A stretch of 64,000 nucleotides of DNA from Gammaproteobacteria bacterium (GCA_032251315.1 JAVVEE010000001.1:50035-114034); one strand, 5' to 3'. Positions 14,343 through 52,430 are shown, counted from the stretch's first letter. A program made the numbers and translations. Notes: generated from the sequence alone by a model not told the origin.

Positions 14343-14357
14343 GTGCACTGATGCTGC

Positions 14358-14402: not shown

Positions 14403-14433
14403 CGAACTGTACACACTCAAGCAACAAAAAACT

Positions 14434-22263: not shown

Positions 22264-22317
22264 ATCACCATCCCACGCTTACCCGCCTTTGCACTGTATA
22301 AGTAACTGCGCAATTGT

Positions 22318-24375: not shown

Positions 24376-24434
24376 GGAAACTACTCTCCGTAACTACTTC
24401 TCCGGCTGTGCCGGAGAACTATTTTTATAATCAT

Positions 24435-24971: not shown

Positions 24972-24997
24972 AGTTAATATTTCCTTATTGGACCGCG

Positions 24998-25363
24998 TTA
25001 GCCTTCGAAGGCGCGCTTCAGGGCATCGACCAGCGCTTTTTCCTGAACCGGCTTGACTATATAGTCGACGGCACCCTGGCGTTTAGCCCAGACCTTGTCG
25101 GTTTCCTGATCTTTGGTGGTAACAATAATCACCGGAATATCAGCAGTTTCGGCCTGCTTAGAAAGCTGCCGCGTCGCCTGAAAGCCATTCATTCCAGGCA
25201 TGACTACATCCATGAGAATGAGATCCGGCAGCTTCTCCTTTGCAGCCACAACACCCTCTTCACCCGAGCTTGCGGCATCAACGTCATATCCATTTTTTTC
25301 TAACAATGTTTTTAAAACATGAATCTCGGTGGGGGAATCATCAACTATGAGTATTTTTGCCAT
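24998..25363 (-). CDS. pilH: CheY-like response regulator PilH
   Basis: 121 aa single REC domain (MAKILIVDDSPTE…DVVMPGMNGF…). Confidence 0.85.
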   Translation of the reverse strand: MAKILIVDDSPTEIHVLKTLLEKNGYDVDAASSGEEGVVAAKEKLPDLILMDVVMPGMNGFQATRQLSKQAETADIPVIIVTTKDQETDKVWAKRQGAVDYIVKPVQEKALVDALKRAFEG

Positions 25364-25409
25364 TTATTATCACCTTATTAAAATTTTTACGGACGAAAAA
25401 AACAACTTA

Positions 25410-25823
25410 TTATTTTTTAACGTGCTCTTTAATTGCACCCAGCAGATCTTCCTTGGTAAAGGGCTTGGTTAAGTATTGGGTTGAACCCACAATGCGTCCG
25501 CGCGCACGGTCGAATATACTGTCCTTGCTGGAGAGCATAATGACAGGCGTTTTGTGAAACATGCTGTTGTTTTTGATGAGCGCACAGGTCTGATAACCGT
25601 CCAGCCGGGGCATCATGATGTCCACAAAAATAATGTCCGGCCGGGTTTCGGCAATTTTTGATAATGCCTCGAAACCATCTACTGCCGTGACCACGTCACA
25701 GCCTTCTTTCTTTAACAGGTTTTCCGCCGTCCTACGAATAGTCTTACTATCATCGATGACCATCACCTTAAGGTCTTTCAAATCAACAACTTCATCTGTC
25801 ATCGCCGTCGCCGTCTCGCTCAT
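25410..25823 (-). CDS. pilG: CheY-like response regulator PilG
   Basis: 137 aa REC domain (…LKVMVIDDSKTIRR…DIMMPRLDGYQT…); divergent from gshB as in P. aeruginosa. The start could be the later Met (MTDEV…). Confidence 0.85.
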   Translation of the reverse strand: MSETATAMTDEVVDLKDLKVMVIDDSKTIRRTAENLLKKEGCDVVTAVDGFEALSKIAETRPDIIFVDIMMPRLDGYQTCALIKNNSMFHKTPVIMLSSKDSIFDRARGRIVGSTQYLTKPFTKEDLLGAIKEHVKK

Positions 25824-33989: not shown

Positions 33990-35162
33990 CTACCTGAGTC
34001 GGCCCGCTGATTGTTCAGATGGGTCTTCCGCCATTTGCAGCTTGTCCAGTCCGCTCATCAGATCCTCTTTTTTGGAACCCTTGCCTTCCAGCTTGAACTT
34101 CAGCCTCAGGTCGTTCAACGAATCGGCATTGCGCAGGGCGTCTTCATAGCTGATCTTGCCCGCTTCACTCAAAGTGAACAGGGCCTGATCAAAGGTCTGC
34201 ATGCCCTGTTCATTGGACTTGGAGATCAGCTCTTTCATTTCGTGAACCTGCCCCTTGAAAATCAGATCTGCCATGAACGGGGTATTGATCATGACCTCTA
34301 CCGCTGCGATGCGTCCTTCTCCGGAAATGGAGGGGATCAGTCGCTGCGAGATCAGGCTCTTCAGGTTCAGGGAGAGGTCCATCAGTAACTGCTGACGACG
34401 CTCCTCGGGGAAAAAGTTGATAATGCGATCCAGCGCCTGATTGGTGCTGTTGGCGTGCAGGGTTGACAGGCACAGATGCCCGGTCTCGGCGAAGGCAACC
34501 GCATATTCCATGGTCTGGCGATCACGAATTTCACCAATCAGAATCACATCCGGTGCCTGACGCAGGGTATTCTTCAGCGCCACTTCATAACTCTCGGTAT
34601 CCACGCCCACTTCGCGCTGGGTGACAATGCAGTTACGATGGTTATGGACAAACTCGATAGGATCCTCGATGGTGATGATATGGCCTTTGCTGTTCTCATT
34701 GCGGTATCCCACCATGGCGGCCAGCGAGGTCGACTTACCGGAACCGGTCGCCCCCACAAAAATTACCAGACCACGTTTGGTCATGGCGATCTCTTTCAAT
34801 ACCGGCGGCAGGTTCAGCTCGTCAAATTCGGGAATGTCCGACTGGATTCTGCGCAGCACCACGCCCACCGAACCGCGCTGAGCAAAGGCGTTGACACGGA
34901 AGCGGGAGACACCCGGCAGACTGATGGCAAAATTACATTCCTGCGTGGCTTCAAATTCGGTGGACTGCTTGTCGTTCATGAGCGAGCGCACCAGCATCTG
35001 GGTATGCTGCGGACTCAATGCCTGATTAGACAGAGATTCCATAGCACCATCAACCTTAATCGATGGCGTCGCCCCCGCGGTGACGAACAGATCCGAGCCG
35101 CCTTTCTGCACCATGGTGCGTAGAAGATCGTGCATATATCGTATAGCTTTATCGCGATCCAT
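33990..35162 (-). CDS. pilU: Type IV pilus ATPase PilU
   Basis: 390 aa; near-identical motif spacing to P. aeruginosa PilU (…KRGLVIFVGATGSGKSTSLAAM…GHLCLSTLHAN…); the start may be the internal Met at 35135. Confidence 0.9.
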   Translation of the reverse strand: MDRDKAIRYMHDLLRTMVQKGGSDLFVTAGATPSIKVDGAMESLSNQALSPQHTQMLVRSLMNDKQSTEFEATQECNFAISLPGVSRFRVNAFAQRGSVGVVLRRIQSDIPEFDELNLPPVLKEIAMTKRGLVIFVGATGSGKSTSLAAMVGYRNENSKGHIITIEDPIEFVHNHRNCIVTQREVGVDTESYEVALKNTLRQAPDVILIGEIRDRQTMEYAVAFAETGHLCLSTLHANSTNQALDRIINFFPEERRQQLLMDLSLNLKSLISQRLIPSISGEGRIAAVEVMINTPFMADLIFKGQVHEMKELISKSNEQGMQTFDQALFTLSEAGKISYEDALRNADSLNDLRLKFKLEGKGSKKEDLMSGLDKLQMAEDPSEQSAGRLR

Positions 35163-35212
35163 CTTAGAGATTACCTCATGTTTTTTTGTTTAACCAGGCG
35201 TGCGACAGCCTC

Positions 35213-36247
35213 CTAGAAATTATCCTTGTTCGCCGCTTTCTTTCTGGCTTCGTCTTTATTGATCAAGCCTTTTGACAGCAGCTCCTGCAGGTTCTGGTCC
35301 AGGGTCTGCATGCCGATCGACTGCCCGGTCTGAATCGCCGAATACATCTGGGCGATTTTATTCTCTCGAATCAGGTTGCGAATCGCCGGCGTGCCAATCA
35401 TGATTTCGTGCGCCGCGATGCGACCGCCACCCACTTTCTTCAACAGGGTCTGGGAAATAACCGCCCGCAAAGATTCGGACATCATGGCTCGCACCATCTC
35501 CTTCTCTGCTGCCGGGAACACGTCCACGATACGGTCAACGGTTTTTGCGGCTGAACTGGTATGCAGCGTACCGAAGACCAGATGCCCGGTCTCCGCTGCC
35601 GACAATGCCAGCCCGATGGTTTCAAGATCGCGCATTTCGCCCACCAGAATCACATCAGGATCTTCACGCAAAGCTGAACGTAACGCATCGGCAAAACCGA
35701 GTGTATCACGATGCACCTCACGCTGATTGATCAGCGATTTTTTGCTTTCATGCACAAACTCAATGGGATCTTCAATGGTCAAAATGTGGCCATAGTGGTT
35801 TTCGTTAACATAGTTGACCATGCCCGCCAGTGTGGTCGATTTTCCCGATCCTGTCGGCCCGGTCACCAGCACGATGCCACGCGGGGTATTGGAGATATCT
35901 TCAAAAATCTTCGGCGCGCCCAGCTCTTCCAGAGACAGAATTTTGGAGGGAATGGTACGAAAAACCGCACCCGCGCCCCGGTTATGATTAAAGGCGTTGA
36001 CACGAAAACGGGCCAGTCCGGGAATCTCGAACGAGAAGTCGGTTTCCCAGTACTCCTCAAAGGTCTTGCGCTGTTTATCGTTCATGATGTCATACACCAT
36101 GCTGTGAACGTCTTCGTGCTCCATCAGATCAACATTAATACGTCTGACATCACCATCGACACGGATCATCGGTGGCAGGCCTGCCGACAGGTGTAAGTCA
36201 GAGGCCCCGTTTTTGACACTGAATGCCAGAAGTTGTGCAATATCCAT
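35213..36247 (-). CDS. pilT: Type IV pilus retraction ATPase PilT
   Basis: 344 aa; nearly collinear with PilT of Pseudomonas (MDIAQLLAFSVKNGASDLHLSAGLPPMIRVDGD…GPTGSGKSTTLAGM…AIRNLIRE…). Confidence 0.95.
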   Translation of the reverse strand: MDIAQLLAFSVKNGASDLHLSAGLPPMIRVDGDVRRINVDLMEHEDVHSMVYDIMNDKQRKTFEEYWETDFSFEIPGLARFRVNAFNHNRGAGAVFRTIPSKILSLEELGAPKIFEDISNTPRGIVLVTGPTGSGKSTTLAGMVNYVNENHYGHILTIEDPIEFVHESKKSLINQREVHRDTLGFADALRSALREDPDVILVGEMRDLETIGLALSAAETGHLVFGTLHTSSAAKTVDRIVDVFPAAEKEMVRAMMSESLRAVISQTLLKKVGGGRIAAHEIMIGTPAIRNLIRENKIAQMYSAIQTGQSIGMQTLDQNLQELLSKGLINKDEARKKAANKDNF

Positions 36248-36485
36248 CAATTCCCCCGGATGTTTCTATTTTCTTTTAGTGACCCGATCAGCATGGCTGA
36301 ATCAGATCGGATCGCTGAATGTGTATACCCTACTACTTATAGCCAATAAATCTCCGCCCTTCACGTTATTTAACGGTCTTTATCGGAAAATCTTTTATCA
36401 TCGGCTAATGCGGTTTCGCTGGCTATGTTAGAATTTTCATTTAAACAAGCACTTACTAACCTGCATCGGAACTGAAATTAATCAA

Positions 36486-38242: not shown

Positions 38243-39388
38243 ATGCCAGATTCCATACCCTCCGATTCCGTCGGCATCGTCGCCACAAAAACGCTGCATT
38301 TTTCAGAGCCGCTCGAACTCGAATGCGGCAAAACCCTGTCGCAATATGACATCGCCTACGAAACCTACGGCGAGCCCAATGCAGCGGGCAGCAATGCGAT
38401 TCTGATTTGCCACGCCCTCTCCGGCGACCAGCATGCCGCCGGCTACCATTCGATGCAGGACAAAAAACCCGGCTGGTGGGACAGCAGTATCGGCCCCGGA
38501 AAACCCATCGACACCAACCATTTTTATGTCGTCTGCATCAACAATCTGGGCAGCTGCAAGGGCTCCAGCGGCCCCAACACCAAAATACCCGGCACCGACA
38601 AATACTGGGGTCCGGATTTCCCCATCGTCACCGTCCGGGACTGGGTCAACAGCCAGCACCGGGTGATGCAGGCGCTCCACATCAGCCACTGGTGCGCGGT
38701 CATCGGCGGCAGTCTGGGCGGCATGCAGGTGATGCAATGGTCGATTGACTATCCCGACCTCATCCACTACGCGCTGGTGATCGCCGCCGCCTCCAAGCTG
38801 TCTGCCCAGAACATCGCCTTCAACGAAGTCGCCCGCCAGTCCATCATGTCCGACCCGGATTTTCACAACGGCCACTATCTGGAAAATAACAGCGTGCCGC
38901 GCCGGGGACTGATGCTGGCCAGAATGCTGGGGCACATTACCTATCTTTCGGATGATTCGATGCGCGAGAAATTCGGCCGGGAATTGCGCGAAGGCAAACT
39001 CAGCTTCGGCTTCGATGTGGATTTTCAGGTGGAGAGTTATTTGCGCTATCAGGGCACCTCATTCGTGGATCGGTTTGATGCCAATACCTATCTGCTGATG
39101 ACCAAGGCGCTGGACTATTTCGACCCGGCCAGCGAACACGGTCACGACCTGGCGGCGACCCTCAGCAGGGCCACGGCGAAATTCCTGGTGATCTCCTTCA
39201 CCTCAGACTGGCGCTTCGCCCCCGAACGCTCACAGGAAATTGTCAGGGCGCTGCTCGATGCCCGCAAGCAGGTCAGTTATGTCGAGATCACGGCGCACCA
39301 TGGCCACGACGCCTTTCTGATTCCTATTCCCCATTACATGAACATATTTCACAGCTACATGAAAAGCATCCGCGAGGCTATTCAATAA
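38243..39388 (+). CDS. metX: Homoserine O-acyltransferase MetX (alpha/beta hydrolase)
   Basis: 381 aa; nucleophile elbow GGSLGG; metX-metW pair. Confidence 0.9.
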
Positions 39389-39993
39389 TGCGCGCCGACC
39401 TTGCCATCATTGCCGAATGGATCAAACCCGGCGCATCGATCCTGGATCTGGGCTGCGGCGACGGCACCCTGCTGAAATACCTGCGCGACCATCAGCAGGT
39501 GCACGGCATCGGCCTGGAAATTGATGAGCGCAACATAGAAATCTGCCTCAGCAATAATCTGAACATCATTCAATCCGACCTGAACAACGGCCTGCAAGAC
39601 TATTTCTCGGACAACAGTTTCGACTACGTCATCATGAGCCAGACCCTGCAGGCCACCGTCCACCCGGAAAAACTCATCGAAGAGATGCTGCGTGTGGGCA
39701 GGGAGGGCATCGTCACCTTCCCCAACATGGCGCACTGGAGGGGACGCATGCAACTGGCGCTGGGCGGTCACATGCCGGTCACCAAAAGCCTGCCCAATCG
39801 CTGGTATGACACCCCCAATATTCATCTGTGTACAGTGCAGGATTTTGAAATTTTATGCCGCGAACGAGGCATAAAAATCCTGGAGCGGACTTTTGTCGAC
39901 CATACCCGCAGTCGCAGCTCGCTGCTGATGAAACTATTTCCGAACTTATTCAGTGAAATAGCACTCTATCGTTTCTGCAACAGCCACAGATGA
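39388..39993 (+). CDS. metW: Methionine biosynthesis protein MetW
   Basis: 201 aa; SAM-MTase-like …ILDLGCGDGTLL…; overlapping start with metX stop. Confidence 0.85.
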   Translation: MRADLAIIAEWIKPGASILDLGCGDGTLLKYLRDHQQVHGIGLEIDERNIEICLSNNLNIIQSDLNNGLQDYFSDNSFDYVIMSQTLQATVHPEKLIEEMLRVGREGIVTFPNMAHWRGRMQLALGGHMPVTKSLPNRWYDTPNIHLCTVQDFEILCRERGIKILERTFVDHTRSRSSLLMKLFPNLFSEIALYRFCNSHR

Positions 39994-40081: not shown

Positions 40082-40990
40082 ATGACCCGAACTTTTAACC
40101 AGTTATTCACTCACAGCGAGCAGTTGCAACCGCTGTTAAAACGCCTGCCCGTGGTGATCAATTTCCTGCTGATTATCGCCTGCGCGCAGCTGCTCTCGCA
40201 GGGCATCTGGATGCTGCTGGCTGAACCTGAATCTGAATTTTTCGCTGCCACCCCCTCGGCGAATTCGGGCACAGACAAAAACGCTGACAATGCCCAAAAA
40301 TCACAGCAGCAGGCTTTCCGCAGCCTGACCAGCGCTCATCTGTTCGGTGTTGCCCAAAATCAAGGCCCCCAGATGAGCGCTGAAAAAGCCCCCGATACAA
40401 AACTCAATCTGGTTTTGAGAGGCATCCTCACTGCAGGTGAAACGCAAATGGCCAGCGCCATTATCGCGCGGGGCGCCAACGGTCAGGAAGAGATCTACGG
40501 CATCGACGATAAAATGCCGGGGGGTATAACGCTCAGAGAGATCCACGCCCAACACGTCATTATCGAACGCCAGGGCCAGCTAGAAACCCTGCGCATGGAG
40601 AAAGACGAGGGTGATGACCTGATCTCCGCCCCAGTGGGCAGACCGCAGTCGTCCACTTCAACCATGTCCGCACTTGCCTCACAAAAAATAAAAAACATTC
40701 GCCGTGAACTGATCAGTAACCCGACCTCGTTCAGCAAGTACGCCCTGCCGGTCGTGGTCAGGGAAAATGGCGTACAGGTGGGCTATCGACTGCAACCCCA
40801 GCAAAACAGTGACCTGCTCAGGCAGGCGGGACTTGAAGCCTCCGATGTGATTACTTCGGTCAATGGCGTCAGCCTCAACGACATGAACAACAGCATTAGT
40901 GCCTTGAGAGAGCTGAGCTCAGCCAGCCAGGTCAACATTATCGTGAAACGTAATGGCGTCGAGATTCCCCTTAATATTCAGCTACAATAA
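40082..40990 (+). CDS. gspC: Type II secretion system protein C (PDZ domain)
   Basis: 302 aa; N-terminal TM, HR region and C-terminal PDZ (…GYRLQPQQNSDLLRQAGLEASDVITSVNGVSLND…); immediately upstream of gspD. Confidence 0.75.
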   Translation: MTRTFNQLFTHSEQLQPLLKRLPVVINFLLIIACAQLLSQGIWMLLAEPESEFFAATPSANSGTDKNADNAQKSQQQAFRSLTSAHLFGVAQNQGPQMSAEKAPDTKLNLVLRGILTAGETQMASAIIARGANGQEEIYGIDDKMPGGITLREIHAQHVIIERQGQLETLRMEKDEGDDLISAPVGRPQSSTSTMSALASQKIKNIRRELISNPTSFSKYALPVVVRENGVQVGYRLQPQQNSDLLRQAGLEASDVITSVNGVSLNDMNNSISALRELSSASQVNIIVKRNGVEIPLNIQLQ

Positions 40991-41027: not shown

Positions 41028-43076
41028 ATGACCCGTTTAAGAATTAGCTCCGCCAGAGCACGACTGCCCGGCATCACCAGCAGCTTTATTTTATTGCTGC
41101 TGTTCAGCTTTTCGGCAATGGCGAATGAGATCACGCTCAACCTTAAAGATGCCGATATTCGAGCGCTGATCAGCACGGTTTCAAAATTCACCGGCAAGAA
41201 CTTCATCATCGACCCGCGTATCAAGGCCAAGGTGACGGTGGTCTCCGCCAACACCATGTCGCCGGATGAGGTCTACGAAGTTTTCCTTTCGGTGCTGCAG
41301 GTACACGGTTTCGCCGCCGTGCCGACTGGCTCGGTGATAAAAATCATTCCCGAGGTCAATGCCAAGCAGAGCGCCGTCCCCCTGTCAGTCAATGGCAAAC
41401 AGCTTGCCGATGACGAGCTGATCACCAAACTGATCCGCATGGATCATGTACCGGCGGCGCAACTGGTACCCATCCTGAGACCCCTGGTGCCGCAGCAGGG
41501 CCATCTGGCGGCTTATGCGCCCACCAACAGCCTGATCATTACCGACCGCGCCGGTAACATCGAGCGTCTGATGCAAATCATCGAGGGCGTTGATCGACCG
41601 GACACTGATGAGCTGGAAATCATTCCGCTCAAACATGCTTCGGCGACTGAGCTGGTGCGCATCGTCAACTCTCTGTACCAGACCAGCGGAGCCAAAAATG
41701 AGGCCAGTAAAATAAATATGGCCGCTGACGAGCGCACCAACAGCGTATTAATGTCGGGAGATCCCGCTGCGCGACTCAAGGCCCGTGCCACCATTGTTCA
41801 GCTGGATACCGCGCTGGAAACAGGTGGCGGCAATACCCACGTCATCTATCTCAAATATGCCGAGGCGGAAAATATGGTGCAGATCCTCACCGGCATTCAG
41901 AACGCGACATCTCAGTCACCGGGGACCAGAGGTTCGACGCCGGCGAGGGCTCCGGCAGCTGCCGCGAACGGTTCAACCGGCGTCTTTTCCCAGCTGGCGG
42001 ATATTCAGGCCGATAATGATACCAATGCGCTGATCATTACCGCCGACCCCAACACCCTGAAAAGCCTGAAGTCGGTTATCCGCCAGCTCGATATCCGCCG
42101 CGCTCAGGTGCTGATTGAAGCCATCATCGCCGAGATTACCGCCGGCAAAAGCCGCGAACTGGGCGTCGGCATGGCAGTCGACGGCTCACCCTCTGACGAT
42201 GATAATGTCCCGGTGGGCATGAGCAATTTCGGCGGCCTGGGTAATATTCTCGCCGCCGCCAGCGGTCTGACCACGGACCCCAGCTCTTTGCTGAGTCCCG
42301 GACTCACCCTCGGTGCCGGCAAGACCAGCAGCTCCGGCACCCGCTATGCGCTGCTGCTGCGGGCGCTGGCGACCGATGATTCCAGCAATATTCTCTCCAC
42401 CCCCAGCATCGTCACACTGGATAACGAAGAGGCCGAGATCATTGTGGGTGAAAATGTACCTTTCGTTACCGGCCAGTTCACCAACACCGGCAGCAGCGAT
42501 CCCAGCAACCCCTTCCAGACCATCGAGCGCCAGGATGTCGGCCTGACCCTGAGAGTCACGCCCCAGGTCAATGAGGGCGATACCATCAAGCTGGATCTGG
42601 AACAGGAGACCTCCAGCGTGATTCCCGGCAGTGAGGTCTCCGGCATTACCACCCGTAAACGTTCAATCAAAACCAGTGTGCTGGTGGATGATGGCGGTAT
42701 TCTGGTTCTGGGCGGCCTGATTCAGGAGACCATCAGCGAAGGCGAGAGCAAAGTTCCTCTGCTTGGTGATATCCCCCTGCTGGGCGCGCTGTTCAGATCC
42801 ACCTCCAGCAACAAGAGCAAACAGAACCTGATGGTTTTCCTACGCCCCAGCATTCTGCGCGATGATGCCGATGCGGCCTTTATCACCAATGAAAAATACA
42901 ATTACCTGCGCAGCCTGCAACTTCAGCCTGAAAAAGGCATAGCGGATGATGACACTCCGCTGCTGGAGCCCCTGAAGCCGGCGACGATTGATAAAGGCGA
43001 AGCCAAAAACCGACAAGAGGACCCCGTCAAAAACCAAAATGATTTTGAATGGGATGATGATGACCAATATTTCTGA
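41028..43076 (+). CDS. gspD: Type II secretion system secretin GspD
   Basis: Start at in-frame ATG (MTRLRISSARARLPGITSSFILLLLFSFSAMA signal peptide); N0-N3 domains; secretin core (…VLGGLIQETISEGESKVPLLGDIPLLGALF…) and S-domain. Confidence 0.9.
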   Translation: MTRLRISSARARLPGITSSFILLLLFSFSAMANEITLNLKDADIRALISTVSKFTGKNFIIDPRIKAKVTVVSANTMSPDEVYEVFLSVLQVHGFAAVPTGSVIKIIPEVNAKQSAVPLSVNGKQLADDELITKLIRMDHVPAAQLVPILRPLVPQQGHLAAYAPTNSLIITDRAGNIERLMQIIEGVDRPDTDELEIIPLKHASATELVRIVNSLYQTSGAKNEASKINMAADERTNSVLMSGDPAARLKARATIVQLDTALETGGGNTHVIYLKYAEAENMVQILTGIQNATSQSPGTRGSTPARAPAAAANGSTGVFSQLADIQADNDTNALIITADPNTLKSLKSVIRQLDIRRAQVLIEAIIAEITAGKSRELGVGMAVDGSPSDDDNVPVGMSNFGGLGNILAAASGLTTDPSSLLSPGLTLGAGKTSSSGTRYALLLRALATDDSSNILSTPSIVTLDNEEAEIIVGENVPFVTGQFTNTGSSDPSNPFQTIERQDVGLTLRVTPQVNEGDTIKLDLEQETSSVIPGSEVSGITTRKRSIKTSVLVDDGGILVLGGLIQETISEGESKVPLLGDIPLLGALFRSTSSNKSKQNLMVFLRPSILRDDADAAFITNEKYNYLRSLQLQPEKGIADDDTPLLEPLKPATIDKGEAKNRQEDPVKNQNDFEWDDDDQYF

Positions 43077-44571
43077 AGCCGCTGAAATCTCCCATGAGGT
43101 CTTAACGCCGCAACGGCTGCCTTATGCCTTCGCCAAGCGCCACGGTGTGTTGATCGGCCAGATAACCGATGATCAGGTTCAGATTCTGCATCGCGAGGAT
43201 TTCAGCCCGCTGATTCTGGCCGAAGTCAAACGCGCCACCGGCCGTAAGCTCAATCTGGCGCCGGCCTCCAACGAACAGTTCGCCGCGCTGCTGGCCCAGA
43301 CTTACGAGCAGGGCAGCGATCAGGCCATGGCCATGATGCAGGGCGTGGGTGATGAGCTCAACCTCGATGAGCTGGCCGGTTCACTGGAGCCGGAAGATCT
43401 GATGGAAGCGGATGATGATGCGCCCATTATTCGCCTGATCAATGCCCTGCTCACCGAAGCCATCAAGATCGATGCCTCAGATATTCATATTGAACCCTTT
43501 GAAAGCAAAATGCGCATACGCTTTCGCGTCGATGGTCTGCTGCGCGAGATACTGCAACCGCCCAGCAACATTGCACCGCTGGTGATTTCGCGCATCAAGG
43601 TCATGGCGAAAATGGATATCGCTGAAAAACGCCTGCCCCAGGATGGCCGCATCTCTCTGCGGGTTGCCGGGCGCTCGGTCGATGTCCGCGTCTCCACCCT
43701 GCCCTCGGGCTACGGCGAGCGGGTGGTGATGCGTCTGCTCGACAAACAGGCCGGGCGTATGGATCTGGAACAGCTGGGCATGGCCGAAGCCACCCGCGAC
43801 ACTTTCGACCAGCTATTACACAAGCCGCACGGCATTATTCTGGTCACCGGCCCGACCGGTTCGGGTAAAACCACCACGCTGTACGCCGGGCTGACCCGTC
43901 TCAACGTCAAGTCGCGCAACATTCTCACTGTCGAAGACCCTATTGAGTATTACATCTACGGCATCGGCCAGACCCAGGTCAACACCAAGGTCGACATGAG
44001 TTTTGCACGCGGCCTGCGCTCTATTCTGCGGCAGGATCCTGACGTGGTCATGATCGGTGAAATTCGCGACCTCGAAACCGCTTCGATTGCCGTGCAGGCC
44101 AGTCTGACCGGCCATCTGGTGATGTCCACGCTGCATACCAACACTGCCATCGGCGCCATCACCCGCCTGCGCGACATGGGTGTCGAACCTTTCCTGCTGG
44201 CTTCCAGTCTGGTGGGCGTGCTGGCACAACGGCTGGTGCGCAACCTCTGCCCCAACTGCCGAAAACCCCATGTTGCCAGCGACTCCGAGCGCCAGTGGCT
44301 GGGCATGAAAGCCGATGATATCACTCATATCTATACCGCCGAGGGCTGTGAAGCCTGCAACTATCAGGGCTATGCAGGCCGTAGCGGCCTGTATGAACTG
44401 GTCCCCATTGACGACACCCTGCTGGCTATGATTCACGACGGTGCCAGTGAACACGACATGGAAAAATATGCCCGCACCAAATCGCCCAGCCTGCGCCAGG
44501 ACGGGCGACGCATGATCCTGAAGGGCATCACCTCGCTGGAAGAGGTTATCCGGGTGAGTCGTGAAGATTAA
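43054..44571 (+). CDS. gspE: Type II secretion ATPase GspE
   Basis: Walker A GPTGSGKTT; tetracysteine CPNC…CEAC; N1E domain. Start is ambiguous among in-frame ATGs at 43039-43060, all overlapping the gspD 3' end. Confidence 0.9.
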   Translation: MMMTNISEAAEISHEVLTPQRLPYAFAKRHGVLIGQITDDQVQILHREDFSPLILAEVKRATGRKLNLAPASNEQFAALLAQTYEQGSDQAMAMMQGVGDELNLDELAGSLEPEDLMEADDDAPIIRLINALLTEAIKIDASDIHIEPFESKMRIRFRVDGLLREILQPPSNIAPLVISRIKVMAKMDIAEKRLPQDGRISLRVAGRSVDVRVSTLPSGYGERVVMRLLDKQAGRMDLEQLGMAEATRDTFDQLLHKPHGIILVTGPTGSGKTTTLYAGLTRLNVKSRNILTVEDPIEYYIYGIGQTQVNTKVDMSFARGLRSILRQDPDVVMIGEIRDLETASIAVQASLTGHLVMSTLHTNTAIGAITRLRDMGVEPFLLASSLVGVLAQRLVRNLCPNCRKPHVASDSERQWLGMKADDITHIYTAEGCEACNYQGYAGRSGLYELVPIDDTLLAMIHDGASEHDMEKYARTKSPSLRQDGRRMILKGITSLEEVIRVSRED

Positions 44572-44588: not shown

Positions 44589-45824
44589 ATGGCCGCCTTT
44601 GAATATATAGCGCTGGATAGCAGAGGCAGGGAGAAAAGGGGTGTCATCGAAGCCGACACCGCCCGGCAGGCACGCCAGCTTCTGCGCGATCAGGACCTGA
44701 CGCCACTGCAGATGGAAAACACCAAGGCATCGGAAAAGAAATCGAGCAAGACAGCTTCGTCACTGCATCAAATCAAGCTTTTTCAGCGCGGCATCAACTC
44801 CACCGAGCTGGCCCTGCTCACCCGGCAACTGGCCACGCTGATACAGGCGGCCCTGCCGTTGGAAGAATCGCTCTCGGCGGTGGCCAACCAGTCCGATAAA
44901 CCGCGCATCAAAAGCATGATGTACGCGATTCGCTCGAAGGTGCTGGAAGGCCATACCCTGGCCGCCGGACTGGCCGATTTCCCCAAGGTTTTCTCGCCCC
45001 TGTTCTGCGCCACCATCGATGCCGGCGAGAAATCCGGCCACCTCGATACCGTGCTGGAGCGGCTGGCCGACTACACCGAAACCCGGCAGGAGCTACAGAG
45101 CAAAGTCAGTCAGGCCATGATTTATCCCGTCTTTCTCACCGGCTTCGCCGTACTCATCGTCGGCTTCCTGATGGCCTATGTGGTGCCGCAGGTGGTGGCG
45201 GTATTCGAGGACATTGGCGAGGAGCTGCCCGGCCTGACGCTAGGGCTGATCAGCATCAGTGACTTCGTGGTCAACTTTGGCGTGTATGCTGTTTTCATAC
45301 TGATAGCGCTGATCATCGGCCTGAAAGTGCTGCTGCAGAAACCCCGCTATCAGGAGCGTTATCACCGCCTGTTGCTCAGGCTGCCACTCATACAGAAGCT
45401 GGTTCGTGGCCTGAATACCGCCCAGTTCACCCGCACTTTCAGTATTCTTTCCGGCAGCGGCGTAGCGGTACTGGAGGCGATGAAAATTTCGGCTCAGGTG
45501 GTCAGCAATCTGCCCCTGCGCAATGCCATCCTCGATGCCACTGACCGGGTCCGTGAAGGCAGCGGCATCAGCAAGTCAATGGCCAGCAGCCGGCTGTTCC
45601 CCCCTATCACCCTGCAGCTCATTGCCAGCGGTGAAAACAGCGGCAAGCTGGATGAGATGCTGCACCGCGCCTCCACTCAGCTGGAGCGTGAACAGGTCAC
45701 CCTGATCGCCTTCATCGTCGGCATCATGGAGCCGCTGATTATCAGCGTCATGGGGCTGCTGGTGTTACTGATTGTGCTTGGCATTCTGCTGCCCATTTTT
45801 GACCTGAACCAGCTGGTGAAATAA
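44589..45824 (+). CDS. gspF: Type II secretion inner-membrane platform protein GspF
   Basis: 411 aa; two GspF/PilC repeats; three TM. Confidence 0.9.
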   Translation: MAAFEYIALDSRGREKRGVIEADTARQARQLLRDQDLTPLQMENTKASEKKSSKTASSLHQIKLFQRGINSTELALLTRQLATLIQAALPLEESLSAVANQSDKPRIKSMMYAIRSKVLEGHTLAAGLADFPKVFSPLFCATIDAGEKSGHLDTVLERLADYTETRQELQSKVSQAMIYPVFLTGFAVLIVGFLMAYVVPQVVAVFEDIGEELPGLTLGLISISDFVVNFGVYAVFILIALIIGLKVLLQKPRYQERYHRLLLRLPLIQKLVRGLNTAQFTRTFSILSGSGVAVLEAMKISAQVVSNLPLRNAILDATDRVREGSGISKSMASSRLFPPITLQLIASGENSGKLDEMLHRASTQLEREQVTLIAFIVGIMEPLIISVMGLLVLLIVLGILLPIFDLNQLVK

Positions 45825-46400
45825 CCCCAACAGCAGCGCAGACACGCCCCCGCCTACGGCGCCATACAGATGCGCATCGGTGACCACGCGACCTGCGGCA
45901 AGCTCCTCCGAACCCGGCAGCGCACCGTACATGAGCTCCCAGAGCAACTTGCCCACCAGCAGAGCCATGAGCGCATAACCACTGGCGGGATAGAAACGTA
46001 TTTCGCGCACAGTGCCGTAAATGAACAGCCCATGCAGGATACCGGAGAGACCGACATAGGTGCTGACCTGCGGATTAAACCAGTACAGGCCGACGCCGAC
46101 AAACATTGCCGAGACCAGCATCACCAGCAACCAGTGAAAAACAGCGCCATAACTGCTGAAAAAAAAGGCCACAATCCCCAGACCGGCCATATTTAATCCC
46201 CAGTGCGCCCAGTTCAGATGTACTATGTTGCCGCTCAGCAGCAGCCAGTAGTGGCCCTGCTTGATCAGCTGTAGATCATAACGCCAGCCGGGTACCTGGC
46301 CACTGGCCTGCAAATAGGCGCTCAGCAGCAACACCAGCAACCACAGGCCATGGCTCCAGTGCATAGAAAGACGGTTTTGCATAGGCAGTTCGAGACGCAT
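45765..46400 (-). CDS. Rhomboid-family intramembrane serine protease, rhombosortase-like (about 211 aa, 6 TM)
   Basis: Rhomboid signatures: HLNWAHWGLNMAGL (TM2 H-x-x-x-N), GLSGILHG (GxSGxxxG catalytic Ser), AHLYGAVGG (catalytic His). Size is typical of rhombosortase. Antisense between gspF and gspG, with the 3' end overlapping gspF by 60 nt. Confidence 0.7.
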   Translation of the reverse strand: MRLELPMQNRLSMHWSHGLWLLVLLLSAYLQASGQVPGWRYDLQLIKQGHYWLLLSGNIVHLNWAHWGLNMAGLGIVAFFFSSYGAVFHWLLVMLVSAMFVGVGLYWFNPQVSTYVGLSGILHGLFIYGTVREIRFYPASGYALMALLVGKLLWELMYGALPGSEELAAGRVVTDAHLYGAVGGGVSALLLGLFHQLVQVKNGQQNAKHNQ

Positions 46401-46471
46401 TTGTTATCATTCCAACATTTATCAAGTGTGAACTTAAAAAGCTGGACGAACTCTAACGGGTTGCGTTACAA

Positions 46472-46954
46472 GTGGCAAAATATTATTCATCAGGAGTCAA
46501 AAGTTTGAAATCACAAATCAATATTCTCAAATCATACCAGCAGGGTTTTACCCTGATAGAACTGATGGTGGTGATTGTCATCCTTGGCATTCTGGCCGGG
46601 GTTGTAGTTCCTAAAATCATGGATAATCCGGATAAGGCGCGCGTCGCCAAGGCCAAACACGATATCTCCGCGCTGGGAAGCGCCCTGGATGTTTACCGTC
46701 TGGATAATTATTTCTACCCCACCACCGATCAGGGGCTGGAAGCACTGGTCAGCCAGCCCAGCGGCAATCCTGAACCGGCCAACTGGAAAGCCGGCGGCTA
46801 CATTAAGAAGCTGAACAAAGATCCCTGGGGCAACGATTACCTGTACCTGAGTCCGGGGCAACACGGTGAGCTCGATATTTATTCACTGGGCGCCGATGGT
46901 GCACCTGGCGGTGAAGGCGTATCCGCCGATATCGGTTCATGGGAAATTGAATAA
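46472..46954 (+). CDS. gspG: Type II secretion major pseudopilin GspG
   Basis: …[26 protein letters not shown]… prepilin-type N-terminus. The alternative TTG start at 46505 with AGGAG 8 nt upstream would give a 14-aa leader instead of 25. Confidence 0.9.
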
Positions 46955-46980
46955 CCCAAAACTCAATTCACGTGTTTGCA

Positions 46981-47519
46981 ATGAAGGTTCGAGCAGGGTA
47001 AATGGATTTACCCTGCTCGAACTGATGATTGTTCTGGTCATTGTTTCGATCCTTTTCACCTTTGTCTCATTCACCATTCGCGGCCATTCCCCCGAAGAGT
47101 CAATGGCGGAAGAGGCGCGTCGACTTGATCGCCTGGTACAACTGGTGCTGGAAGAGGCGGTGCTGAAAAACACCGAATACGGGCTTGAATTCAAACGCCA
47201 CAGTTACCGCTTTCTGAGCTACGAAGACGAGCAGTGGCGCGCTGTTAGCGGCGACCGCCTGCTGCGCGAACGGCAGCTGCCCAACGAGATGGAGATCGAA
47301 CTGGCCATCGAGCAACTGGATGTCGTCATCGGGGAGCCCTCTGAACAAAATGACAGCGAGCGCACAGAGGAGGAGCTCAAACCCCAGGTCTTCCTGCTCT
47401 CCAGCGAAGAGATTACGCCTGAATTCACCGTCTATTTCAGCATTCGCGGCATCGCCACCGGTTATCAGGTCAGCGGCAGCATCGACGGCAAACACGAGGC
47501 CAGGCAGAGTGATTTTTAA
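46981..47519 (+). CDS. gspH: Type II secretion minor pseudopilin GspH, with an apparent 1-nt deletion or frameshift at the 5' end
   Basis: The mature part (…VNG|FTLLELMIVLVIVSILF…) is in frame 0 but has no in-frame start codon. ATG at 46981 in the +1 frame gives MKVRAG then TAA. Adding one G to the GGG run at 46996-46998 yields MKVRAGVNGFTLLE…. Confidence 0.6.
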
Positions 47520-47904
47520 ACGCCCCCCTCACACCTTTAACCGACACCGTAACGGCGGCTTCACGCTGATCGAGGTGCTGATCGCGCTCACCATTATCGC
47601 CATTTCGCTGGGCGCGCTGATGAGCGCTTCGGGCAATCAGGCCTACCAGACCGGCTACCTGAAACAGAAAACCCTGGCCCACTGGGTGGCCATGAACGAG
47701 ATGACCCAGCTGCAACTGGAGGAGGAATGGCCGGCGCTGGGTGAACGCAAGGGCAGTTCAGAGATGGCCGGTGCCGAATGGTTCTGGCTGCGCACGGTGA
47801 AAGAGACGCAGGATGACAATGCCCGCGGGGTTGAACTAGAGGTGTTTGCCGACAAAAACCACAAACAGAACCTGACCCGTTTAATGGGCTATGTGAACAG
47901 ATAA
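47509..47904 (+). CDS. gspI: Type II secretion minor pseudopilin GspI
   Basis: GTG start overlapping gspH stop; leader MIFKRPPHTFNRHRNGG|FTLIEVLIALTIIAISLGAL. Confidence 0.8.
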   Translation: MIFKRPPHTFNRHRNGGFTLIEVLIALTIIAISLGALMSASGNQAYQTGYLKQKTLAHWVAMNEMTQLQLEEEWPALGERKGSSEMAGAEWFWLRTVKETQDDNARGVELEVFADKNHKQNLTRLMGYVNR

Positions 47905-48546
47905 ATGCAGCCGCGCCCAACTCATTCTCTACAGGCCAAACGTTCCTCCTGCCGTGGCTTTACCCTGATCGAACTGCTGATCGCCATCGCCGTGTTCTCG
48001 GTCATGTCGGTGATGGCCTACGGTGGCCTCAGTCAGATTATTCAGAACAGCAGCCACTCAAAACTGGAGTTGCAACGCTTACAGTCGATTCAACGCGCGG
48101 TGCTCAGCATCAGCCGGGATCTCACCCAGGTGATCGAACGTGATATTCGCGATGAATACGGCAACACTCAGCCTTTTTTTGCGGCCGGCAACAGCATTGA
48201 TTACCTGCTCGAGTTTACCCGCAACGGGCGACGCAATCCGGCCGGATTGCAGCGCAGCCATCTGTTGCGCGTCGCCTATCAGCACGAGGATGGAAAGCTG
48301 TTGCGCCTGTTCTGGCCCCAGCTCGACCGGGCGCAAGGCATGGAGCCCTACGAAAGCATTCTGCTGGAGCAGGTGACGGCGGTGGAGTTACGTTACCGCG
48401 ATGATGCCGGAGAGTGGCATTCGACATGGCCGCCGCTCAATGCTCAACAGGCCGGGGATAATCCATCCCGACTCAGCGCCATTGAGTTCACCCTGGAGCT
48501 GGAAAACTGGGGTGAGATCAGCCGGCTTTATCAGGTGGGCGGCTGA
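47905..48546 (+). CDS. gspJ: Type II secretion minor pseudopilin GspJ
   Basis: 213 aa; …SSCRG|FTLIELLIAIAVFSVMSVMAYGGL…. Confidence 0.85.
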   Translation: MQPRPTHSLQAKRSSCRGFTLIELLIAIAVFSVMSVMAYGGLSQIIQNSSHSKLELQRLQSIQRAVLSISRDLTQVIERDIRDEYGNTQPFFAAGNSIDYLLEFTRNGRRNPAGLQRSHLLRVAYQHEDGKLLRLFWPQLDRAQGMEPYESILLEQVTAVELRYRDDAGEWHSTWPPLNAQQAGDNPSRLSAIEFTLELENWGEISRLYQVGG

Positions 48547-49484
48547 TGAGATTACCTGCTGCACAGAAAGGCGTGGCTCTGATCACGGCGCTGCTGATTG
48601 TTGCTCTGGCTGCCGTGATCAGCGTTGAGCTGAGCATGCGCTTGCAGCTGGACATCCGCCGCTCCGGCAATGTCATCGCCAGCGACCAGGCCCTGCTCTA
48701 CCTGAAACATGCAGAATACTATGCCCGCCGTACTTTAAAAGAAGATCGCCTGGACAATAATTATGATTCTCTGGATGAAGACTGGGCTATGGAACTGCCC
48801 CCCTTTCCGGTCGAAGGCGGCAGCGTTTTGGGCAGGCTGACCGACCTGCAGGGCTGCTTCAATCTGAATTCGCTATATTACAACGAGCAGCCGAATGCCC
48901 TCGCCCAGCAACGCTTTAACCGCCTGATGCAACGCCTTCCCAGCCCGCCGGTCACGGATCTTTCTCAGGCCATTATCGACTGGATCGATGCCAATCCCGA
49001 CACCACCCTGCCCGATGGCGCGGAAGATAGCTACTACCTCAATCAGGAGCGGCCTTACCGCAGTGCCGGCCAGCCGTTACTGAGCCTGAGCGAGTTACGC
49101 CTGATCAAAGGTTTTACCGATGGCGAGATCATGCAGCGAAGCGAAAGTTTTCTGTGTGCCTTTGGCCCGCCTGCGGATATCAACGTCAACACAGCGCCGG
49201 CAGAAGTGCTAGAATCGCTGGCAGCCAATATTAGCACTGCGATGGTCGCAGACATCATCGTTCAAAGGCAGACTAATCCTTCCCAGACAATGCAAGAATT
49301 TCTGAGCGACTACAATCTTTCTACGGTCATCACCGATACCGCCGGACTCTCTGTCAGCAGCGATTATTTTCTACTGGAGAGCGAAGCCCGAATTGGTCAG
49401 GCCAGAACCCTGATGTACAGCATTATTCATCGCGAAAATAATGGCGACACGCAGGTAATAGCGCGTTCACAGGGGGCTTATTAG
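48546..49484 (+). CDS. gspK: Type II secretion minor pseudopilin GspK
   Basis: 312 aa; N-terminal …KGVALITALLIVALAAVISVELS… and GspK helix-hairpin-helix-like C-terminal domains. Confidence 0.85.
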   Translation: MRLPAAQKGVALITALLIVALAAVISVELSMRLQLDIRRSGNVIASDQALLYLKHAEYYARRTLKEDRLDNNYDSLDEDWAMELPPFPVEGGSVLGRLTDLQGCFNLNSLYYNEQPNALAQQRFNRLMQRLPSPPVTDLSQAIIDWIDANPDTTLPDGAEDSYYLNQERPYRSAGQPLLSLSELRLIKGFTDGEIMQRSESFLCAFGPPADINVNTAPAEVLESLAANISTAMVADIIVQRQTNPSQTMQEFLSDYNLSTVITDTAGLSVSSDYFLLESEARIGQARTLMYSIIHRENNGDTQVIARSQGAY

Positions 49485-50728
49485 TGGCCGACACACTGCT
49501 CATCCATTTTAATCCCGAACATCCCGACGCAGCTGTCTGGGCGCTAGTGAACGCTGCCGGTGAGCTCAGTACCATGCTGACGCACGGTTCGCTGGATGAG
49601 GCCGCACTCGTCGCGGCAAAACATAGCACTGTTATTCTGCTCGACAGTACCGCCATACACATTGATGTGATCAAGCTGCCCATCCGGAACCCGCAAAAAC
49701 TGCTACGCGCAGCACCTTTCGCCCTCGAAGAAAAAATTGCTGACGACATTGATGATTTGCATTTTGTCACCGGCAGAACTGCCGGCAACGGCACCACCCC
49801 GGTGCTGGCCATCAGGCATGATATATTGGGCCGCATCCTCAGGCAGCTGGAACAGTCCGGCATCGCGCCGATGGCGCTGATTCCCGATACGCTCTGCCTC
49901 ACCGCGAGTCCGACACAATGGGCGATTCTATTAGATGATGATCGCGCCAAAGTGCAGTTTGACCAGTTTGACGCCGGTGAATTTGACCGCGACATGCTGG
50001 CCCTGCTGCTCAAGGCGGAACTGCAAAAAGCCACTCGCCAGCCGCCTGAAAAACTCATTCTGTTCACGCCGGACGGTGACGCTTCCGAAACAGACAGCAT
50101 CCAGGCGGTGATCCCGGAACAGCTCGAGCTGGTCAAGGTCAGTTACAACACGCATCCGCTGGTGATTTATTGCGGCCAATACCGACAGGCACTTTCGCTT
50201 AACCTGTTGCAGAATGCCTACAAGCCAAAACCCAAGGTCAACCAGAACCGGTTGCGCTGGCGCCTGCCGACTACGTTAGCGGCGGTATGGCTGGGCCTGC
50301 ACCTGGCGATTACCGGCGTGCAATATTATAAATTTCAGGGCAGCAATGAAAAGCTGCAAGTTGAAATTGAAAACCTATACAGGAAAACATTTCCGCAGAG
50401 CCAGCGCATCGTTAATGCCCGAGTGCAAATGGAGCAAAAACTCAATGAATTAAAAGGACTGGGTAACACCGGCTCAAATGCCGGCCTGATCAGCCTGCTC
50501 GCCGCTGCCGGCGATGCCCTCTCGAGCGAGAAATCGATCGTCATACAGTCCATCAGTTATCGCCAGAACACCCTGGACATTGAAGTCACCGCTGCCAACC
50601 TGCAGAATATCGAACAGCTGAACAAGAAACTCAACAAGGCTGATCTGAGTGCTGAAATCATCTCGTCGTCATCAGCAAAGAATCAGGTTAATGGCAGCCT
50701 TCGCATCAAACGCGCGCAATCATCATGA
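49484..50728 (+). CDS. gspL: Type II secretion inner-membrane protein GspL
   Basis: 414 aa; cytoplasmic actin-like domain, single TM (…LPTTLAAVWLGLHLAITGV…), periplasmic domain; GTG start overlapping gspK stop. Confidence 0.8.
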   Translation: MADTLLIHFNPEHPDAAVWALVNAAGELSTMLTHGSLDEAALVAAKHSTVILLDSTAIHIDVIKLPIRNPQKLLRAAPFALEEKIADDIDDLHFVTGRTAGNGTTPVLAIRHDILGRILRQLEQSGIAPMALIPDTLCLTASPTQWAILLDDDRAKVQFDQFDAGEFDRDMLALLLKAELQKATRQPPEKLILFTPDGDASETDSIQAVIPEQLELVKVSYNTHPLVIYCGQYRQALSLNLLQNAYKPKPKVNQNRLRWRLPTTLAAVWLGLHLAITGVQYYKFQGSNEKLQVEIENLYRKTFPQSQRIVNARVQMEQKLNELKGLGNTGSNAGLISLLAAAGDALSSEKSIVIQSISYRQNTLDIEVTAANLQNIEQLNKKLNKADLSAEIISSSSAKNQVNGSLRIKRAQSS

Positions 50729-51228
50729 AACAGAAACTCGACGCTTTAAATACCTGGTTCAGCACTCTGCCGGGGCGTGACAAAAACCTGCTCGTGGTCG
50801 CGATAGCCCTGCTTGTGAGCACCCTGTTTTACCTCATGGTATGGGAGCCACTGCATCAGGGCCGTGATCAGGCGCAGCAGAAACTGAAATCTCAACAGGA
50901 GATTTATGCCTGGATGCAAACCGCCTCTGTAGAAGTCAGGTCGCTGAAGGGTGCCGGCACCAGACCCGCATCCAGCACTCAGCCCATCGCCTTGATTCTG
51001 GAGAACAGCGCGAAAATTTCCGGCTTGAAGCAGCACATCAACAAGATTGAGTCCTCCGGAAAGAGCGGTGCCAATGCCCAGATCGATTCAGCCTCGTTCG
51101 ACCAGATGCTGGTCTGGCTCAACACTCTGGAACAGCAGCACGGGGTCACCGTCACCACCGCCATCATAGAGCGCAATGAGCAGCCCGGCACCATTAGCGC
51201 ACGACTCTCATTTGAAAAACTGCCATGA
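50725..51228 (+). CDS. gspM: Type II secretion inner-membrane protein GspM
   Basis: 167 aa; single TM; position after gspL. Confidence 0.8.
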   Translation: MKQKLDALNTWFSTLPGRDKNLLVVAIALLVSTLFYLMVWEPLHQGRDQAQQKLKSQQEIYAWMQTASVEVRSLKGAGTRPASSTQPIALILENSAKISGLKQHINKIESSGKSGANAQIDSASFDQMLVWLNTLEQQHGVTVTTAIIERNEQPGTISARLSFEKLP

Positions 51229-51992
51229 AAATAAAATACTACCTGATTACCGGCATCCTGGCGCTGGCGCTGTTTTTAACTGCCAACATCCCCGCCGCTT
51301 CGATGGCCTCGGTGCTTAAGGCTCAGCTGCCCCAGGTCAACATGCAGAACGTCAGCGGCACCTTATGGCAGGGTTCCGCGCAGCAGGTTACCGTTCACGG
51401 CCATGTATTCAGGAATGTAAACTGGTCGGTCTGCACTACACATCTGCTGATGGCCAGGGCCTGCGTTGAATTCGACGCGCTCTACAATAACAGCCCGTTG
51501 AGCGGGCAGCTGAGCGTGGGACCGAGCCAGACACTAGAAGGCAAAGACATCAAAGCCGAGATGAATGCACACACGCTCGGCCAGCTGGCGGCACTGCCGA
51601 TGGGCGAAATTGCCGGTGATGTTTCGCTTGATCTGACCTCGCTCAGCTGGCAGCCGGGCGGCGTGCCTGCCCTTAACGGCATCGTCAAGTGGAGCAACGC
51701 CAGTGTCACCATTGCCGAAATGGCCCGACTGGGCGACATCACTATTACCCTGGCTGAATCGGACGAGAACCCGATTAATGCGACCGTTTCCAATCAGAAC
51801 GGACAGCTGGCGATAGCGGGCCAGGCCTCGCTGGGTGCAAACACCGGCTATCAGGTCGATTTGCAGCTGACGCCGCAAAACGGCGCCAGCAATAATCTGA
51901 AAAGCAGCCTGAGCCTGTTCGCCAAACCCCAGTCCAATGGTCAGTACCTATTGAAAAACAGCGGCAATTTGAAGCAACTAGGCTTAATGTAA
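51225..51992 (+). CDS. gspN: Type II secretion protein GspN
   Basis: 255 aa; N-terminal TM; last gene of the gsp cluster. Confidence 0.7.
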   Translation: MKIKYYLITGILALALFLTANIPAASMASVLKAQLPQVNMQNVSGTLWQGSAQQVTVHGHVFRNVNWSVCTTHLLMARACVEFDALYNNSPLSGQLSVGPSQTLEGKDIKAEMNAHTLGQLAALPMGEIAGDVSLDLTSLSWQPGGVPALNGIVKWSNASVTIAEMARLGDITITLAESDENPINATVSNQNGQLAIAGQASLGANTGYQVDLQLTPQNGASNNLKSSLSLFAKPQSNGQYLLKNSGNLKQLGLM

Positions 51993-52022: not shown

Positions 52023-52430
52023 ATGAAAACAAAAACAAGCACGAAGAAAATAAAAATCACCACTGAAAACAAATGCAGCTTCTGCACCGGTTCGATCTGC
52101 TGTACTTATGTCACCCACCATCTTGATGCGCCCAAATCAAAAAGTGATTTCCAGCAGCTGCTGTGGCAGGTTTCCCATGAGCATGTCAGCATCTATAAAG
52201 ATGATGACGGCTGGACCCTGCTGATCAGCGGTAATTGCCAGCATCTGCAAGTCAATGGCGATTGCGGTATCTATGAGACGCGCCCGGAAATATGCCGTGA
52301 ACACACTAATGATTACTGTGAATACGACGCACCCTCAGAAGATGGTTTCGATCTCTATTTTAGAAACTACGAAGAGCTACTGGCTTACTGCAGGAAACGT
52401 TACAAGAAGTGGGACGAGCAGTTTAAATAA
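52023..52430 (+). CDS. YkgJ-family cysteine-cluster (putative Fe-S or zinc) protein
   Basis: 135 aa; CSFCTGSICC…NCQHL…DCGIYETRPEICR cysteine pattern (UPF0153-like). Confidence 0.55.
   Translation: MKTKTSTKKIKITTENKCSFCTGSICCTYVTHHLDAPKSKSDFQQLLWQVSHEHVSIYKDDDGWTLLISGNCQHLQVNGDCGIYETRPEICREHTNDYCEYDAPSEDGFDLYFRNYEELLAYCRKRYKKWDEQFK

Follow-up and report, generated by a model that had tools for sequence, protein, structure and literature searches.

The closest described counterpart of the gene considered here is the rhombosortase of Vibrio cholerae (RssP/RrtA, VC1981). In that organism, Sec exports the cargo, a C-terminal GlyGly-CTERM helix holds it in the inner membrane, the rhombosortase cuts it behind the GG motif, a glycerophosphoethanolamine-containing moiety is attached to the freshly exposed C terminus, and the organism's type II secretion system (T2SS) then carries the cleaved protein to the cell surface (Gadwal et al., PMC6219818). 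Arrival of VesB at the surface requires the rhombosortase and then the T2SS (PMC6219818), and its secretion reportedly also requires the PDZ domain of the V. cholerae GspC homologue (PMC12369372). Here we describe a rhombosortase gene at positions 45765 to 46400 of a 64,000-nucleotide (nt) stretch of DNA, hereafter the window, from Gammaproteobacteria bacterium (GCA_032251315.1, JAVVEE010000001.1:50035-114034). The gene lies on the minus strand within a T2SS cluster, between gspF and gspG.

Three other known systems invite comparison with this locus. The prepilin peptidase GspO/PulO, an intramembrane aspartyl protease whose substrates are the pseudopilins of the machine itself, is encoded within some T2SS clusters. 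The locus described here resembles that arrangement in keeping an intramembrane protease gene inside the T2SS cluster, but a rhombosortase is a serine protease and would be expected to process cargo; gspO is not in the window cluster. The GlpG rhomboids of Escherichia coli and Haemophilus influenzae (PDB 2ic8, 2nr9 and others) share with the window protein the six-helix fold, the Ser-His dyad and the HxxxN motif, but their identity to it is 14 to 18%, and E. coli GlpG has an N-terminal cytoplasmic domain that is missing from the window protein. The myxosortase/MYXO-CTERM and Synerg-CTERM systems likewise pair a C-terminal sorting signal with an intramembrane protease and depend on a T2SS for surface display, and for Synerg-CTERM a divergent T2SS cassette co-occurs with the signal by phylogenetic profiling (bioRxiv 10.1101/2023.06.07.544157). 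They differ from rhombosortase in that their proteases are of the CPBP/Rce1 (glutamic) type and their signals have an invariant Cys. For rhombosortase itself, no special relationship with any T2SS type or subclass was found in 2011 (Haft and Varghese, PMC3237569), and our search of the rhombosortase literature found no description of gsp gene adjacency or of the gspF gene order.

RESULTS

The gene between gspF and gspG encodes a rhombosortase

A sequence-only reading of the window had placed a 211-residue open reading frame (ORF) between gspF and gspG on the strand opposite to them, and had taken its product for a rhombosortase-like protease with all catalytic signatures. The position, strand and length proved exact, and profile searches bore out the assignment. 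TIGR03902 (rhombosortase) was the sole NCBIfam match of the protein, at 139.2 bits against a curated cut-off of 84, with a nearly full-length alignment (residues 40 to 188 against positions 5 to 153 of the 154 in the profile), whereas Pfam returned the general Rhomboid domain alone, at 35.4 bits. These scores, together with the absence of an extra N-terminal domain, rule out a generic GlpG.

The motifs quoted for the protein were all found in the translation, namely VHLNWAHWGLN (H61, H66 and N70), VGLSGILHG (Ser119) and DAHLYGA (His177). The first group is arranged as H61-x4-H66-WGL-N70, the HxxxN motif of the second transmembrane helix (TM2) being H66/N70. Among 33 close homologues (57 to 92% identity), H61, H66, N70, S119 and H177 were invariant. 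In an alignment of 44 diverse homologues, reaching down to ∼31% identity, H61, H66, G117, S119, G120 and H177 were invariant and N70, K151, E155 and others nearly so, and the motifs GLSGxLHG and LPGSE...DAHLYGA were common to the window protein and the diverse rhombosortases. In view of the invariant catalytic residues, we rejected an inactive pseudoprotease. Given the TIGR03902 score and this conservation, the protein is neither of the generic GlpG type nor variable at its catalytic Ser and His.

A search of a large protein database returned 2594 homologues at E ≤ 1e-5, and those that carried a name were called rhombosortase or "rhomboid family GlyGly-CTERM serine protease." At 50% identity the window clade formed a cluster of its own, with the next representative 47% identical. 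PDB sequence searches, run both with the protein alone and with a profile of 33 sequences, returned no rhomboid or GlpG and gave a spurious adiponectin match only, so the GlpG fold was settled by structure prediction and Foldseek. The AlphaFold2 model built from the alignment was confident (predicted local distance difference test [pLDDT], 87.4; predicted TM-score, 0.83), with low confidence limited to the first residues and the last ∼20 residues. Its top 32 PDB matches in Foldseek were all bacterial GlpG (probability of 1.0, target TM-scores of 0.63 to 0.73, 180 to 197 aligned columns), and the model, a six-transmembrane rhomboid core without accessory domains, matched GlpG along the full length of that core. 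The homologues, the confident model and the structural match to GlpG rule out a chance antisense ORF. The product of 45765-46400 is a rhombosortase, a new member of a known family.

The rhombosortase gene is paired with gspG in related loci

To compare gene order, we fetched 98 related loci, 93 of them unique, and compared the window Gsp proteins with all of them by tblastn. The loci came from a scan of species-representative genomes (five loci at 71 to 94% identity, from metagenome-assembled genomes [MAGs] labelled Gammaproteobacteria), from a metagenome scan with a 9-sequence alignment (80 loci at 41 to 74% identity) and from twelve context look-ups of more distant homologues, including MAGs labelled Thiotrichales and Granulosicoccaceae. 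They were sampled as the closest relatives of the window protein, and the fractions given below are not descriptive of rhombosortases generally. In 71 of the 76 unique loci with at least 400 nt of upstream sequence, gspG lay directly upstream and divergent, across a spacer of 38 to 270 nt. The pairing spans ∼43% to 94% protein identity, and its carriers include MAGs labelled Thiotrichales (locus L006) and Granulosicoccaceae (L092) as well as a locus at 44% identity (L097). L006, from the closed genome CP070838.1 (GCA_020341835.1), has the arrangement seen in the window. This recurrence strengthens the link to type II secretion that had been drawn from the position of the gene in the window.

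The other flank was variable in the 77 loci with at least 400 nt of downstream sequence. A convergent gspF overlapped the protease gene by 36 to 90 nt in 18 loci, followed it after a gap of 7 to 182 nt in 13, and followed after inserted genes (675 to 2643 nt) in 4. Seven loci had metX-metW-gspC-D-E on the same strand as the protease gene, and the remaining loci had unrelated genes (recG, an acetyltransferase gene, cysQ or a LysR regulator gene) or a flank too short to tell. A further apparent gap to gspF, of 489 nt in L002, was artefactual, the copy being truncated where the contig ends. The sets gspCDEF and gspG-N were found apart or divergently oriented in relatives. Since the gspG side is kept and the other flank varies, the constant unit is the rhombosortase gene with gspG-N, and the position beside gspF is one arrangement of that unit. 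In a neighbor-joining tree, the gspF-rhombosortase-gspG arrangement appeared in three branches, whereas the metXW-gspC form was a single nested branch; the order found in the window is therefore likely to be ancestral for its wider group.

Some relatives showed further variations. In L097 (9001-10457), cysQ comes next after the rhombosortase gene, shares its strand and overlaps it by 4 nt, while in the window and most relatives it lies beyond gspN. Two homologues without gsp linkage, in L089 (5341-6486) and L091 (4654-6492), form the C-terminal end of much longer frames, with stop-to-stop lengths of 381 and 612 codons, respectively, and the database representative P0244 has 572 residues. These long unlinked homologues may be fusions with an N-terminal domain.

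Putative promoters on both strands of the gspG spacer

We aligned seven spacers corresponding to 46401-46504 of the window (57 to 100% protein identity; relatives, 57 to 79%) and found three invariant blocks. The first, TTTGC-N17/18-TAGAGT on the protease strand, was invariant in the seven aligned relatives and across the window's clade, and it coincides with a promoter-like element called by consensus scan (Table 1). The second, AT.ATA.CAAATG at the start of the protease gene, reads as TGnTATCAT on the gspG strand, and the third, CTGCCTAT in protease codons 5 to 7, reads as TAGGCA on the gspG strand, 17 nt upstream of the -10 element. The putative gspG-N promoter formed by these two blocks overlaps the start codon and first codons of the rhombosortase gene, and the scan called it in the window and independently in L006. 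The pattern TGnTATnnT was present in 65 of 74 unique spacers, compared with 3.3 expected from shuffles (maximum, 10), a count that is descriptive because the pattern was picked post hoc; most spacers without it carried a TACTAT variant. In the group at 44 to 50% identity, the element was fixed 69 nt from the GspG Gly14 codon, and the ATG inside it meets a stop after three codons, which argues that it is conserved as DNA and not as a start codon.

From these elements we infer that gspG-N and the protease gene each have a promoter of their own. The two would face each other within ∼100 bp, with transcript starts predicted near 46417 (plus strand) and 46443 (minus strand), making coordinated or competing expression of the protease and gspG-N plausible. 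The sequence-only reading had described the gene as embedded in the T2SS operon. The opposite-strand gene and the promoter-like elements of the spacer instead suggest that gspCDEF and gspGHIJKLMN are transcribed as separate units that meet at the protease gene, and the varying gspF flank is at odds with an embedded position as well.

The overlap with gspF appears to be a by-product of compaction

The convergent overlap between the rhombosortase gene and gspF, put at about 60 nt in the sequence-only reading, is exactly 60 nt. The gspF stop codon TAA, read on the other strand, is the TTA codon of the protease gene at 45824-45822, and the overlap encodes the cytoplasmic tail after TM6, a segment of low pLDDT. 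This tail (LFxQLVxVKNRQQN...) was similar among overlapping loci, with stop codons at differing positions, and reads as the antisense of the conserved GspF C terminus (...LLPIFDLNQLVK); in the non-overlapping homologues P0081, P0116, P0052 and P0076 the tail was an unrelated sequence. Because of the variable stops, the unrelated tails elsewhere and the antisense relation to GspF, the overlap looks like a by-product of compaction and not like evidence of antisense control. The transcriptional interference that had been read from it is unsupported: in relatives the overlap varies in length, gives way to a gap or insertion, or is missing with gspF elsewhere. A terminator scan found nothing convincing between gspF and the rhombosortase gene.

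Composition of the T2SS cluster and other features of the window

All twelve genes from gspC to gspN flank the rhombosortase gene, gspCDEF on one side and gspGHIJKLMN on the other (Table 1). The products of gspC to gspL scored above NCBIfam cut-offs, and those of gspM and gspN above Pfam cut-offs. The likely start of gspG, a TTG behind a GGAG ribosome-binding site at 46493-46496, is kept in relatives. Start codons of the first pseudopilin genes are apparently TTG (gspG, 46505), TTG (gspH, 46947) and GTG (gspI, 47509); the overlap is 8 nt between gspG and gspH and 11 nt between gspH and gspI, and the pseudopilin leader peptides are long, with 13 to 19 residues ahead of the GFTL motif. Directly upstream of gspC are metX and metW, which in seven relatives (including L026, L027, L030 and L031) separate the rhombosortase gene from gspC, all on one strand; metXW thus travels with gspCDEF. 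Downstream of gspN are a CxxCxxCC-domain ORF, a HAD nucleotidase gene and cysQ. The CxxCxxCC-domain ORF has no NCBIfam match and is kept there, right behind gspN, at 65 to 87% identity in many relatives (L003-L010, L020, L023, L055 and others).

Elsewhere in the window we noted an S-adenosylhomocysteine (SAH) riboswitch directly upstream of ahcY and metF, a Pil-Chp-like chemosensory cluster and two PilT/PilU-type ATPase genes.

Table 1. Positions of the rhombosortase gene, its sequence elements and neighboring features, counted from the first nucleotide of the window
Feature	Position	Strand	Details
Rhombosortase gene (rrtA/rssP-like)	45765..46400	-	211 residues, ATG start; TIGR03902, Pfam Rhomboid, alignments, AlphaFold2/Foldseek
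H66 codon	46205-46203	-	TM2 HxxxN
N70 codon	46193-46191	-	TM2 HxxxN
Catalytic Ser119 codon	46046-46044	-	GxSG, TM4
His177 codon	45872-45870	-	TM6
Convergent overlap, rhombosortase 3' end/gspF	45765..45824		60 nt; residues ∼192-211 against last 19 gspF codons and stop
Putative rhombosortase promoter	46450..46478	-	-35 TTGCCA 46478-46473, 17-nt spacer, -10 TAGAGT 46455-46450; consensus scan
Putative gspG-N promoter	46382..46410	+	-35 TAGGCA 46382-46387, 17-nt spacer, TG 46402-46403, extended -10 TATCAT 46405-46410
gspC	40082..40990	+	TIGR01713, 117.9 bits; PDZ-region matches at residues 222-302
gspD, secretin	41028..43076	+	TIGR02517, 596.5 bits; listed ORF from 40953, ATG 41028 gives signal peptide
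gspE, ATPase	∼43039..44571	+	TIGR02533, 694.2 bits; listed ORF from TTG 42988, ATG ∼43039 likelier
gspF, inner-membrane platform protein	44589..45824	+	TIGR02120, 478.9 bits
gspG, major pseudopilin	46505..46954	+	TIGR01710, 196.9 bits; Pfam T2SSG, 143.7 bits
gspH, minor pseudopilin	46947-47519	+	Above NCBIfam cut-off (gspH-K set: TIGR01708, TIGR01707, TIGR01711, NF037980)
gspI, minor pseudopilin	47509-47904	+	Above NCBIfam cut-off (same set)
gspJ, minor pseudopilin	47905-48546	+	Above NCBIfam cut-off (same set)
gspK, minor pseudopilin	48546-49484	+	Above NCBIfam cut-off (same set)
gspL	49484-50728	+	TIGR01709, 223.4 bits
gspM	50725-51228	+	Pfam T2SSM, 120.2 bits
gspN	51225-51992	+	Pfam T2SSN, 122.4 bits
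metX and metW	38243-39993	+	metX: succinyltransferase-type model, 645 bits
CxxCxxCC-domain ORF	52023-52430	+	PF03692; 135 residues; directly after gspN
SAH riboswitch	12826-12895	+	RF01057, 60.6 bits (gathering score, 37)
ahcY	12918-14342		TIGR00936, 635 bits
metF	14296-15279		TIGR00676, 312.6 bits
Pil-Chp-like chemosensory cluster	16543-25823	-	
CheA-type hybrid kinase	16543-22263	-	1906 residues, C-terminal receiver; Pil-Chp-like cluster
Methyl-accepting protein	22318-24375	-	685 residues; Pil-Chp-like cluster
Response regulator	24998-25363	-	Single domain; Pil-Chp-like cluster
Response regulator	25410-25823	-	Single domain; Pil-Chp-like cluster
Two PilT/PilU-type ATPases	33990-36250	-	

DISCUSSION

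Taken together, these data fit the route from rhombosortase to T2SS known from experiments in V. cholerae, and they do not point to a new kind of system. The explanation that we favor, and consider likely, is that the window encodes an active rhombosortase acting in an RssP-like pathway with the adjacent T2SS. The protein would be a six-helix rhomboid-type intramembrane serine protease using a Ser119/His177 dyad, with H66xxxN70 in TM2. By analogy with V. cholerae RssP, it would cut the C-terminal GlyGly-CTERM membrane anchor of periplasmic proteins and, if the transamidation chemistry is also the same, the cleaved proteins would receive a lipid-type (glycerophosphoethanolamine) C-terminal anchor and be handed to the adjacent T2SS for display on the cell surface. 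The gene would be transcribed from its own promoter, divergent from gspG, and the protease gene and the pseudopilin/assembly operon would probably be expressed in a coordinated way, since the promoter-like elements face each other at such short distance.

The likeness to V. cholerae RssP/RrtA covers both the enzyme and its setting. Both proteins belong to the TIGR03902 family, have about 200 residues without extra domains and carry the catalytic motifs, and both occur in organisms with a complete T2SS that includes GspN and a PDZ-type GspC, the window GspC likewise having a PDZ-like C terminus. They differ in gene position, the V. cholerae gene being at a separate locus whereas that of the window is linked to the T2SS, divergent from gspG and wedged between gspF and gspG. 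Substrates such as VesB are known for the V. cholerae enzyme, whereas the window protein is assigned to the family by its sequence and predicted structure.

Several observations weigh against the favored explanation, and part of them concern the meaning of the gene order. VC1981 is presumably not adjacent to the eps genes, judging by the eps locus numbering. Five of the loci (L087, L089, L090, L091 and L098) lacked gsp neighbors, and in L098 the rhombosortase gene follows tig-clpPX-lon-hupB-ppiD. The linked loci all appear to come from related uncultured Gammaproteobacteria, so their conservation may in part be inherited synteny, and other neighbors, cysQ and the CxxCxxCC-domain ORF, are kept as well. 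The putative promoters, for their part, are drawn from consensus matches and conservation. An alternative built on the relatedness of the loci, the other kept neighbors and the unlinked loci is that a genuine rhombosortase gene stands beside gspG because an ancestral order was never broken, without specific functional coupling, which would agree with the tree, where the linked state looks ancestral and not repeatedly gained. We consider this unlikely, however, because the pairing lasts to ∼43% identity in the face of at least five different rearrangements of the opposite flank, because the short spacer keeps motifs conserved on both strands, and because the V. cholerae experiments already connect the two systems (PMC6219818).

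The remaining points against an RssP-like role concern the substrates. A pattern search for GlyGly-CTERM-like C termini, in which a basic tail comes after a hydrophobic helix, gave nothing but chance antisense frames in the 64-kb window, in agreement with the sequence-only reading, which had seen no substrate gene there. In ∼650 kb of flanks from L001-L091 it found only chance antisense frames and the TM6 tails of the rhombosortases themselves, and where relatives have a gap separating the rhombosortase gene from gspC or gspF, a check for a substrate gene there showed metX-metW or unrelated small genes. One could therefore propose that the gsp-linked clade, a separate cluster at 50% identity, acts on noncanonical targets, such as proteins whose C-terminal signal is a variant one or a T2SS component anchored in the membrane. 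The second kind of target meets a topological objection: the anchors of the bitopic Gsp proteins (C, L, M, N and the pseudopilins) are N-in/C-out, whereas rhomboid substrates usually have the opposite topology. The score far over the TIGR03902 equivalog cut-off and the GLSGxLHG and LPGSE...DAHLYGA motifs held in common with diverse rhombosortases also speak against such a shift in specificity. In the earlier survey, some gammaproteobacterial genomes had a rhombosortase but no recognizable GlyGly-CTERM protein, which would suit noncanonical targets; the same survey found target genes next to the protease only in single-target genomes (Haft and Varghese, PMC3237569), so the absence of a nearby substrate is expected for a system with many substrates. 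On balance, we regard noncanonical targets as distinctly improbable. Least probable of all, to the point that we give it hardly any weight, is that the arrangement mainly serves to control gspF and the gsp cluster by antisense or convergent transcription: the 60-nt overlap, its retention in 18 related loci and the lack of a terminator-like site between the genes would suit such control, but the overlap ranges from 36 to 90 nt and is replaced by gaps of 7 to 182 nt or by inserted genes in other loci, gspF is absent from that flank in many, and the tail, with its varying stops, mirrors the conserved GspF C terminus in antisense.

We return, then, to an active rhombosortase working with the adjacent T2SS. 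It is conceivable, though on the doubtful side, that a single shared control region governs both cargo processing and pseudopilus assembly, in which case the linked systems would be the T2SS subclass that Haft and Varghese sought in 2011. The linkage reveals no new mechanism. The dependence of rhombosortase cargo on the T2SS rests on experiments in a single organism, V. cholerae, and genomic context adds independent evidence for the pathway, in that several uncultured gammaproteobacterial lineages keep the protease gene physically linked to gspG-N. The linkage takes the pathway into marine and environmental sulfur-cycle groups, and the linked loci are concrete places in which to seek co-regulation, T2SS features that co-vary with rhombosortase, and the cargo set.

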